DNA of 61,564 nucleotides, taken from sequence record NC_049919.1, one strand, 5' to 3'. Position 1 is the first letter of the stretch. Every line of letters begins with the position of its first letter. A program made the position numbers. Source of the DNA: Escherichia phage SH2026Stx1. This document shows, in pieces, positions 15,001-18,000 of the stretch.

Positions 15001-18000
15001 AGCGAAGCATTGCCAACGCCGGGAGGATGTCGGTTAGCGTACTGCGAAATCCTGCATCGATGGATGACGAGGGCTGGGCACGTGTTGCTAACGGCATGAG
15101 TCAGCTTGCAGATTTGGATGTATGGGTAGTCGATGCTTCGCGGTTATCGGTCGAAGAAATACGCTCAATCGCAGAACGGCATAAGCAGGAAAATCCAAAC
15201 CTGTCACTCATCATGGCGGATTATCTTGGCCTGATTGAGAAGCCGAAAGCAGACCGCAACGACCTCGCAATTGCTCACATCTCCGGAAGCCTGAAGGCGA
15301 TGGCGAAAGACCTGAAAACACCGGTTATCTCCCTGAGTCAGCTTTCGCGCGATGTTGAGAAGCGACCAAACAAACGCCCGACAAACGCAGATTTGCGTGA
15401 TTCAGGAAGCATTGAACAGGACGCAGACTCAATCATCATGCTCTATCGGGAAGCGGTATATGATGAGAACAGTAGCGCCGCGCCATTTGCTGAAATCATC
15501 GTGACGAAAAACCGTTTTGGCTCGCTTGGTACAGTTTACCAGCGGTTCTGTAACGGACACTTTGTTGCATGTGACCAGGATGAAGCCAGACAGATTTGCA
15601 CAGCATCAAATGCACCTGCTGCGCGTGGCAGACGATATGCACAAGGGGCTGACGTATGACCATCTACATCACTGAGCTAATAGCAGGGTTATCGTTACTA
15701 ATGGTTCTTACTGTATATATTATTAAGTATATTCTTTATGCGAATAAAAAAACTAATTGATCACGATGAGCTTCTGTCAACATTATCATATGACTCAGAA
15801 ACAGGAATATTTAAATGGCTAAAAACAAATTCAGTAGTAAGAGTAAAAGGTAGTATTGCTGGAGGTGTTAGTGGTGGTTATATATGCATTAGTATAAATA
15901 ATGTTTTGTATAAGGCGCATAGACTTGCTTGGTTCTATGTATACAAAAAATGGCCTCCTAAGTTTATTGATCATGTAAATGGGAACAGACTTGATAATAG
16001 GATTTCAAACCTAAGACTGGCAACAGAAGAGCAGAATGCAAGAAACATTGTAGGGAATAGATTAAACACATCCGGTGCAATTGGAGTGTCTTGGTATAAG
16101 CCAACTGGCAGGTGGAAGTCTTATGTTGGTTATAAAAATAAGACAATATCGTTAGGGTATTTCGATAGCAAAGAAGATGCAGCATTCATAGCAGCACTAG
16201 CAAGAAAGAAACTATATGGAACTTATGCGAGTAAAGCACTTAATTGCGAGCATGAGCTTTTATCTCAATTTAATAATGATGAGGATAAACTTGCGGAATA
16301 TCTTAAGGAAAAATATAAAAGGACTCGAAAGCGTGTTAAAAAAAGATAAAGGCCTGCTGGTAATCGCAGGCCTTTTTATTTGGGGGAGAGGGAAGTCATG
16401 AATCTGGACAAGCAAGATGCACAAACTATTAGCTCATACATAAGGGCATCAAGACCAGATTACAAAGGTCCGGTATTCGTAGATTTATCTCGCCTTGAAT
16501 AGATTTACATGTGGAAAGCAAGGTTACTTACGCATTTTGTTATTCGAACGATGACTAGCAACATTACAAAACCAATGTAACTGGAAGAGGTGAATATGAG
16601 CACACTCGCAGACCTTATTCATGCCGATATGGCTGAAGATGGAGCAAGGCGTAATAGGTACTGGAAATCATCGAGCCTTCCAGTTTGTGAAAGATTCAAT
16701 CACAGGCCAAAACCAAAACGTAGCCGACGAGACAAAGTGTTGAAAAAACTCATGCAAATTAACATGGCTGGTTTTGTCAGATTCGTGAGTGAAACGACTA
16801 ACGGTGATTGATATGGACGAATCAAGAAAGCAGTTTGAGGAATACGTTGCCAAAAAATTGAGATTACCATTCGAGATGATAACCGAGGCAAGAAATGGTG
16901 ATAGGTACTTCGCATTTTCAAGCATGGATATTCGTCACTCCTTAAATGATTGGTGGGCTTTATGGCAGGCATCGCGAGCAGCTATTGAACTGGATATCGA
17001 CTGGCCCGAATCGAATGACGACCTTTGGAAAGATGGTGAAGAAGGTGCTTATGCGATGGGTTATGAGGATGGGCGTGACAAAACGGTAATTGCAGTAATG
17101 AAAGCCATCAGGGCCGCAGGAATCAAAGAAAAGAATTTCGATTAAGCAAATATCACTTCAATAAATCGCTTTTAAGGCATCACAATCGCTCTGTGGTGAG
17201 GTAAGCACGTGCAAGGTATACCGATAAGCAGCGAGAATGAAAAATGCGTCAGAATGCGTTTGAGGAGGTTTTAAGAAATGAGTACGATAGCTGAGCTTGT
17301 CAGGGCTAATTTTCGTGAAGAGTTGGTGCGTTGGTATCGGTATCGTTCATCGTCCAGTTTGCCGCTTGATGAGTTGTATGAGCATTCACCTGCCGCACGA
17401 CGCTATCCGCGTGACCGTGTTCTTCGACGGTTGTTCAAACTCAACAATGAGTTTCAGCGCAACAGAATTATCCGGAGTCTGGATTTTAAGTGAAGGAGTG
17501 AGCATGAGCGACCTATCATTAACCCAGCCAAAGCTAAAAGAATGTCCGTTTTGCGGCGGTAATGCTCGTCTGTGGGTTGAGGCCGGAATAAATATTGATG
17601 TGTGGGGCTATGCAGAATGTGACCTCTGTGAAGCCAGGGTGGCATGGGCACCATCAGTTGCTGCGGCTACTGAAAAATGGAACCGGAGAGCAGGAGATGA
17701 AGCAAACCTTTCTGCTTCGCAACGAAGCAATCAGAAATAACGCCATAGACGCCATTCTCTCACTACCCATCGACGACAAGTCACCCCACGAAGTCCACGT
17801 TAAAGAACCCAAGCGCAGCAAAGCGCAGAATGACCGCATGTGGCCGATGCTGAACGATGTTTCGCGTCAGGTGCTATGGCATGGTCAACGGCTGGCGCCG
17901 GAAGACTGGAAAGACCTGTTCACTGCCCTGTGGCTTAAGACCAAAAAACTGGAGCAAAGAAGTGCGCCTGGTATCGACGGTGGCGTTGTCATGCTTGGCG

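Follow-up and report, generated by a model that had tools for sequence, protein, structure and literature searches.

Two divergent DUF7301 genes in the nin region of Escherichia phage SH2026Stx1 were probably brought together by recombination between nin-region modules

Results

Gene order at the locus

The stretch of DNA analyzed here (61,564 nucleotides [nt] from Escherichia phage SH2026Stx1, sequence record NC_049919.1; referred to as the window) carries two small genes of the protein family DUF7301, copy A and copy B, which are the subject of this study. Between 14.2 and 18.9 kb, the window spans the junction where the replication module of a lambdoid Shiga toxin (Stx) prophage ends and its nin region begins. 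Window positions 15700 to 18200 were 100% identical at the DNA level to the Stx2-converting phages 1717, Stx2a_F349 (F349), and Stx2a_WGPS4, and the window is an Stx2 phage of the 1717/F349 type from Escherichia coli O157:H7. The initial annotation had described two open reading frames (ORFs) of 71 amino acids (aa) on either side of a 110-aa gene, and these were found at 16596..16811 and 17278..17493. They lie on the same strand, are of the same length, are separated by 682 nt from start to start, and are preceded by good Shine-Dalgarno sequences (GAGG for A and GAGGAGG for B). The features of the locus are as follows (pI, isoelectric point).

14283..15659, + strand: DnaB-type replicative helicase, the final replication gene (ORF; annotation of identical phages)
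15738..16349, + strand: HNH-AP2 homing-type endonuclease of low G+C content (35 to 38%; Pfam HNH_3 and AP2)
16348..16375, + strand: tR2-like intrinsic terminator, a 10-bp stem and then a T run (terminator scan; the homologous Nil2 sequence is annotated "tR2 terminator")
16398..16502, + strand: small ORF, 34 aa from its ATG, phrog_21123, inside the segment shared with phage Stx2a_WGPS6 (WGPS6-type left module)
16596..16811, + strand: DUF7301 copy A, 71 aa, pI 10.35 (Pfam, E = 1.6e-31; clade of P22-like/ST64T "orf69")
16813..17145, + strand: 110-aa acidic protein, pI 4.75, phrog_343; chimeric gene
16981..17105: crossover interval, 125 nt identical to both parental types (mismatch maps)
17146..17277, + strand: 132-nt spacer with the ribosome binding site of B, from the 2851/933W-type module
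17278..17493, + strand: DUF7301 copy B, 71 aa, pI 10.80 (Pfam, E = 3.8e-26; Escherichia Stx-phage clade, ORF30 of Nil2)
17504..17740, + strand: Lar-family restriction alleviation protein, 78 aa, 10 nt 3' of B (Pfam Lar_restr_allev; TIGR03655, 61.4 bits)
17697..18143, + strand: NinB/Orf recombination mediator (annotation of identical phages); Dam methylase (to 18667) and NinE come next

Homology and divergence of A and B

BLASTP aligned A and B without gaps over residues 1 to 56, with identity at 25 of the 56 positions (45%; E = 2e-16), and their Smith-Waterman score was 125, compared to 24.5 ± 4.7 in 5,000 shuffles (z = 21). Both proteins spanned positions 1 to 64 of the 65-position Pfam model PF23975 (DUF7301), with scores of 108.6 bits for A and 91.4 bits for B (curated gathering threshold, 27 bits), and both matched the phrog_1785 profile (E = 4.7e-35 and 2e-33, respectively). 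The nearly invariant family residues L7, L28, P38, R45, D46, and V48 are present in both. Chance similarity and noncoding ORFs were rejected as explanations on the basis of the z score, the Pfam scores, and conservation across the family. The similarity is highly significant, and the initial annotation of A and B as homologous, small, basic proteins of the nin region was borne out by the alignment, the Pfam and PHROG matches, and the pI values. The motifs that it listed were present at the N terminus, MST(L/I)A(D/E)L, and at the C terminus, RD(K/R)VL(K/R)(K/R)L; its central motif required correction to RYxxSSSLP, with two variable residues, not one.

Judged by their sequences, A and B are old, divergent versions of one family and not in-paralogues. 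Over the 56 codons that aligned, the two genes were 48% identical in nucleotide sequence, with a value of 29% for third positions, and the same codon was used for only 5 of the 25 residues that are identical. No flanking repeats were found at either copy, and there was no direct repeat longer than 12 nt. When 47 family members were ranked by nearness, B was 29th from A and A was 11th from B. In an alignment and tree of 48 members, A grouped with orf69 of phage L and ST64T (P22-like Salmonella phages) and with the family member P0017, and B grouped with P0020, P0050, and P0026. The close relatives of A came from E. coli and Salmonella, and those of B came from Escherichia only. A was 100% identical in WGPS6 and 64% identical to phage L orf69; B was 100% identical in 2851, PA28, and Nil2.

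Mosaic structure and crossover interval

The locus is a mosaic of two phage types. WGPS6 matched window positions 15600 to 17150 at 99.5% identity and then continued with a different NinB allele, and phages 2851, Nil2, and PA28 matched positions 16961 to 18300 at 99.6 to 99.8% (99.8% for 2851), with the same gene order in 933W. The overlap common to both parental types (16961 to 17150; approximately 190 nt) corresponds to the 3' half of the 110-aa gene. Within this region, mismatches to 2851 were found only at 16977 to 16980 and mismatches to WGPS6 only at 17106 to 17143. Since the last difference from 2851 is at 16980 and the first difference from WGPS6 is at 17106, the crossover lies within 16981 to 17105. 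The 110-aa gene and the 92-aa ORF29 of 2851 are alleles of one gene (phrog_343) with nearly identical 3' halves; the 5' part of the 110-aa gene is of the WGPS6 type, and its 3' part is common to ORF29 of 2851, Nil2, and 933W.

The reciprocal product was sought with a chimeric query composed of a 2851-type left side and a WGPS6-type right side. The query was matched in one piece at approximately 98% identity in Stx1a_10051 and in several E. coli chromosomes, including that of UTME-3. In Stx1a_10051 (positions 15569 to 16211; locus L101) and UTME-3 (locus L102), an ORF29-type phrog_343 gene is followed directly by a WGPS6-type NinB, and no DUF7301 gene was detected by profile search in the first 36 kb of Stx1a_10051 (including its early region) or in the nin region of UTME-3. 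Natural phages with no copy, with A only, with B only, and with both A and B were thus all found around one shared linker segment. Zero-copy relatives exist, and DUF7301 is therefore dispensable in nature.

Copy number, distribution, and annotation

A survey of copy number in related phages, which the initial annotation had called for, was carried out with tblastn. A search with A matched 224 places in 220 phage records, which leaves four records, all of the 1717 type, as the only ones with two copies. Among B-carrying loci in IMG/VR, 6 of 80 also carried A, with identical spacing and sequence. Two copies were found in 52 of 5,426 complete E. coli genomes, with 100% identity across window positions 16400 to 17700; among 25 of those records listed, most were labelled O157:H7 or O157, and most came from cattle. 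Every divergent locus examined was single copy, including those of the Salmonella phages L and sal5, Klebsiella phage GZ7, Erwinia phage Midgardsormr38, and Cronobacter phage ENT47670, as well as those in nine contigs from IMG/VR and twelve from genomes or metagenomes. Scans of IMG/VR with single divergent family members as seeds gave few loci.

The two-copy form is one recent, clonal arrangement. The pair had been called unusual, which is accurate with respect to its rarity among phage records; it is nevertheless a single clonal form that is already present in public genomes, where RefSeq labels both genes "DUF7301 family protein." RefSeq E. coli loci read "DUF7301 family protein" (twice), "Lar family restriction alleviation protein," and "recombination protein NinB." The B-type gene is unannotated in the RefSeq records of 933W (NC_000924), 2851 (NC_049943), and 1717 (NC_011357), in which the Lar coding sequence is overextended by 120 to 190 nt upstream, across B, in another frame. 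Annotation of E. coli genomes by the Prokaryotic Genome Annotation Pipeline calls both A and B correctly.

The DUF7301 family

When 1.84 billion cluster representatives (50% identity clusters) were searched exhaustively with HMMER, only 52 DUF7301 members were recovered (E ≤ 0.001), all of them small (roughly 27 to 111 residues and mostly about 70). Among phage records, the carriers were lambdoid phages whose hosts belong to Escherichia, Salmonella, Klebsiella, Erwinia, and Cronobacter. Aligning 43 and 47 members gave a consensus for a stand-alone protein of approximately 65 to 80 aa, MST..L..AD..E...R..RY..SSSLP..E.....P....YRRDRVL.RL, which A and B fit. Conserved positions were L7, D11, E14, R21, Y22, S26-S27, L28, P29, E32, P38, V48, L49, and R/K51; in the family column statistics, R45 was invariant, D46 was present in 96% of members, and R/K47 was present in 100%. 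Residues 33 to 51 are basic at nearly every second position, and the median pI of the family was 10.8.

AlphaFold2 modeling with family alignments gave the same predicted topology for both copies, with predicted local distance difference test scores of 87.4 (A) and 86.6 (B). Helices were predicted at residues 4 to 25, 30 to 35, and 45 to 69 of A and at residues 3 to 25, 30 to 35, and 44 to 69 of B. The predicted fold is a hairpin in which two long helices are separated by the SSSLP turn and its short helix and by a basic loop that contains Pro; across the family, helix 3 varies in its C-terminal half.

In nearly all cases, DUF7301 genes were found where the nin region begins, immediately following the replication genes, and A and B conform to this regularity. 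The replication module upstream varied (a DnaB-type helicase, a Toprim/AAA primase-helicase, or lambda P plus Ren), and the DUF7301 start often overlapped the stop codon of the upstream ORF. The sole exception seen was an IMG/VR locus (L092) with a 337-aa gene, integrase-like by eye, just downstream of DUF7301. Downstream neighbors differed and included the 110-aa gene, Lar, DUF3850, a 140-aa protein, and others. The idea of a conserved partner was rejected because these neighbors differ and because phrog_343, although often near, is not consistently adjacent.

A and B are full-length members of PF23975/PHROG 1785 with the same length, motifs, and genomic position as the other members; the window differs only in that two members occur within one phage. 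Phage L/ST64T orf69 and Nil2 ORF30 likewise lie between the replication genes and ninB, with one copy per phage. The order in phage L is DUF4752, orf69, phrog_343, orf98, and ninB, and the order in 2851 is phrog_343, ORF30, Lar, and ninB.

Scans of A and B against Pfam (E ≤ 1), NCBIfam, and PADLOC returned nothing other than DUF7301. A sequence profile search of the PDB (E ≤ 10) gave no match for DUF7301, and Foldseek comparison of the DUF7301 models to the PDB and BFVD also gave none. No relatives of A or B among known defense or antidefense proteins were found with PADLOC models or structures of known function. Neither copy matched Lar (PF14354/TIGR03655) or Ral (PF11058), and only the gene at 17504..17740 matched Lar. 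A literature search for DUF7301 found no mention of the family, and the nin-region literature that was examined did not mention these ORFs.

Neighboring genes and other features of the window

No Rfam family was found in the spacer and intergenic gaps around A and B, and the folding energies of the two intergenic gaps were no better than those of shuffled sequences (z = −0.39 for the spacer at 17146..17277). No terminator or promoter signal above background was detected in the A/B region in addition to those listed, and the spacer contained no terminator.

Compared with phages 2851 and Nil2, the window has the endonuclease gene as an insertion that separates the 3' end of dnaB from tR2 (window positions 15687..16346); phage 2851 matches the window at 15600 to 15687 and resumes at 16346 to 16396. 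The same HNH-AP2 gene follows Ren in PA28 and Toprim-type helicases in other loci, and such varied insertion sites are typical of a homing endonuclease. In 1717 and F349, ISEc8 lies directly after dnaB. This site is empty in the window (15687/15697), which has an insertion sequence (IS)-like trio in the early-left region instead. The trio (6551..8884, − strand) consists of ORFs of 512, 115, and 133 aa, sizes that match those of the ISEc8 (IS66-family) genes (compared with L001, positions 46 to 2487), and it is IS-like by size.

The phrog_343 family (Pfam Phage_phiTE_015 in precomputed annotations of relatives) has a conserved C-terminal motif, (I/V)RAAG(I/L)K. Its N-terminal halves are highly variable and include a 175-aa fused form; relatives were found in L003 (2551 to 2829), L006 (2219 to 2467), and L008 (2195 to 2722).

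Just after ninE, a 590-aa ORF of approximately 33% G+C (19350..21122, − strand; phrog_9230) had no Pfam, NCBIfam, or PADLOC match. Among phage records, only the Stx1 phage AU6Stx1 has it, and in phages 1717 and F349 Ant/Roi occupies this place; the ORF looks like a moron. Rfam searches of the window identified the small RNA STnc100 at 25322 to 25535 and the lambda cIII thermoregulator at 6287 to 6345. ARAGORN found no tRNA genes in the whole window; the closely related phage F349 has ileZ-argN-argO upstream of stx2.

Discussion

Origin of the pair

The pair very probably consists of anciently diverged DUF7301 members that were placed 0.7 kb apart by recombination between two nin-region modules. 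One parent would have been WGPS6-like, with the order tR2, small ORF, DUF7301-A, 110-aa gene, and NinB', and the other would have been 2851/933W-like, with the order tR2, ORF29, DUF7301-B, Lar, NinB, and Dam. Homologous recombination in the shared 3' half of the phrog_343 gene, at 16981 to 17105, would have placed A to the left and B to the right of the junction, and the shared phrog_343 segment would act as a recombination linker between alternative nin modules. Recombination between diverged lambdoid sequences, and mosaicism by way of short shared sequences, has been documented (PMC2327257, PMC3945230), and nin regions draw on a pool of 30 to 50 interchangeable genes (as summarized in PMC5630979). 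As in other lambdoid module exchange through short shared sequences and Red/Rad52-type recombinases, sharp transitions from approximately 99% identity to none were found here, the crossover falls in a shared stretch, and all combinations of the flanking modules occur in nature. The locus differs in that the exchange brought two homologues together and so mimics a tandem duplication.

Tandem duplication was the process proposed in the initial annotation, and it was not supported: the copies are not nearest relatives, their DNA is saturated, flanking repeats are lacking, and the locus is a mosaic of two phages. An in-situ duplication in this phage lineage, after which the two DUF7301 genes diverged, would account for homologues of equal length on one strand at a distance of 682 nt from start to start. 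For each copy, however, nearer relatives than its neighbor are found in other phages, and synonymous sites are saturated while the flanks are 99.5 to 99.8% identical to two different extant phages. Duplication scars or repeats were not found, and, because all two-copy loci are identical, intermediate stages are absent. In-situ duplication is therefore highly improbable. An alternative polarity, in which the arrangement of A, the 110-aa gene, and B is ancestral and the single- and zero-copy arrangements arose when one DUF7301 gene or both were lost or replaced, is compatible with the mosaic data. It gains some weight from the position of DUF7301 directly 5' of phrog_343 in three diverged phages (WGPS6, phage L, and Salmonella sal5), given which the 2851-type ORF29, with no DUF7301 upstream, could be the derived state. 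This polarity was nevertheless ranked low because the two-copy form is rare and invariant, being sequence identical everywhere it was found and mostly in genomes labelled O157:H7 or O157, whereas the single-copy forms are spread widely through phages of Escherichia, Salmonella, Klebsiella, Erwinia, and Cronobacter and are diverse. Host range also differs between the two clades (E. coli and Salmonella for A versus Escherichia only for B), and an ancestral pair is considered unlikely.

Several points weigh against the interpretation presented here, with respect to both the origin and the proposed activity of the pair. The same mosaic data fit either polarity, and the A-plus-B form could be older, with the single-copy types derived from it by a similar exchange. 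The neighbor-joining tree is based on only 69 columns, so its deep branches are weak, although the nearest-neighbor ranks are robust. The conserved polar residues on which binding might depend may serve structure alone, in the hairpin turn and in salt bridges. Finally, because the downstream neighbors are variable, there is no conserved partner, and genomic context gives no functional clue.

Possible function

Genes beyond tR2 are transcribed only after N-mediated antitermination. A and B belong to the rightward early operon and come after tR2, and they are therefore predicted to be N-dependent delayed-early genes of the pR operon. Each protein would be an amphipathic helical hairpin of approximately 70 aa with an invariant Arg/Lys-rich center (residues 33 to 51). 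DUF7301 is presumably not an enzyme, given that it is too small and featureless and has no catalytic features; it would act stoichiometrically, by binding a polyanionic partner, in an accessory, nonessential role. Binding of a polyanion is the most likely activity, as judged from composition and the predicted fold. Nucleic acid was ranked first among the candidate partners, tentatively, on the basis of composition (the family median pI and the basic residues 33 to 51). An acidic host or phage protein, possibly as the target of an antidefense inhibitor, was ranked second and is a somewhat less likely partner; the inhibitor option was entertained because Lar and Dam are encoded next door.

Other small phage proteins offer comparisons. 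Lambda NinH, a Fis mimic (PMC7166090), is a small, basic, dispensable nin-region protein like DUF7301 and provides a precedent for nucleic acid binding. NinH has a Fis-like helix-turn-helix and DUF7301 a predicted helical hairpin, with no sequence relation between them, and the comparison is one of analogy only. Lar and Ral are, like DUF7301, small accessory proteins of phages, and Lar adjoins B downstream; Lar, however, is a Cys-rich protein of the zinc ribbon type (PF14354), and DUF7301 has no such motif and no match to Lar. Laboratory deletions of genes 46 to 58 in Sf6 indicate that nin regions are dispensable under those conditions as well (PMC5630979). Recombination alone suffices to explain the two-copy state, and nothing suggests selection for it.

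Functional explanations of the pair were weighed against this background. DUF7301 may be a small inhibitor used in antidefense or host takeover, with two diverged versions broadening the range of host variants that are neutralized. Counterrestriction genes are nearby (Lar 10 nt 3' of B and Dam methylase beyond), DUF7301 is a small protein that stands alone, its family is narrow and evolves rapidly, with a variable C-terminal helix, and natural presence/absence polymorphism is typical of accessory genes. Searches of Pfam, NCBIfam, PADLOC, the PDB, and Foldseek databases nevertheless revealed no similarity to known defense or antidefense proteins, and DUF7301 is strongly basic, unlike DNA-mimic anti-restriction proteins. 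Adjacency to Lar is limited to the B clade, and recombination explains the two-copy state without selection, so that this explanation is doubtful. It is still less likely that the basic DUF7301 and the acidic phrog_343 protein work together, for example in a complex or with one neutralizing the other, and that A, the 110-aa gene, and B form a functional unit. The charges are opposite (pI 10.4 and 10.8 versus 4.75), DUF7301 lies directly before phrog_343 (1 to 12 nt apart or overlapping) in WGPS6, phage L, and sal5, and the two are adjacent in reverse order in 2851-type phages. Several DUF7301 loci, however, have phrog_343 0.6 to 1.4 kb away or have none detected, zero-copy phages retain phrog_343 without DUF7301, and both genes are simply common in the nin-region gene pool.

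Implications

The DUF7301 family is narrow, positionally conserved, uncharacterized, and carried by the main Shiga toxin phages, which makes it a cheap target for study. There is a small chance that its members are previously unrecognized small Arg-rich helical-hairpin effectors produced early in infection by lambdoid phages, either inhibitors of a host nuclease or defense component or modulators that bind RNA or DNA, with different targets for the A and B clades. If the target specificities of A and B do differ, a recombinant phage with both would gain a broader host range in O157:H7 populations. The locus itself illustrates clearly how nin genes are shuffled when phages recombine within a gene segment that they share, and how the outcome can resemble tandem duplication.

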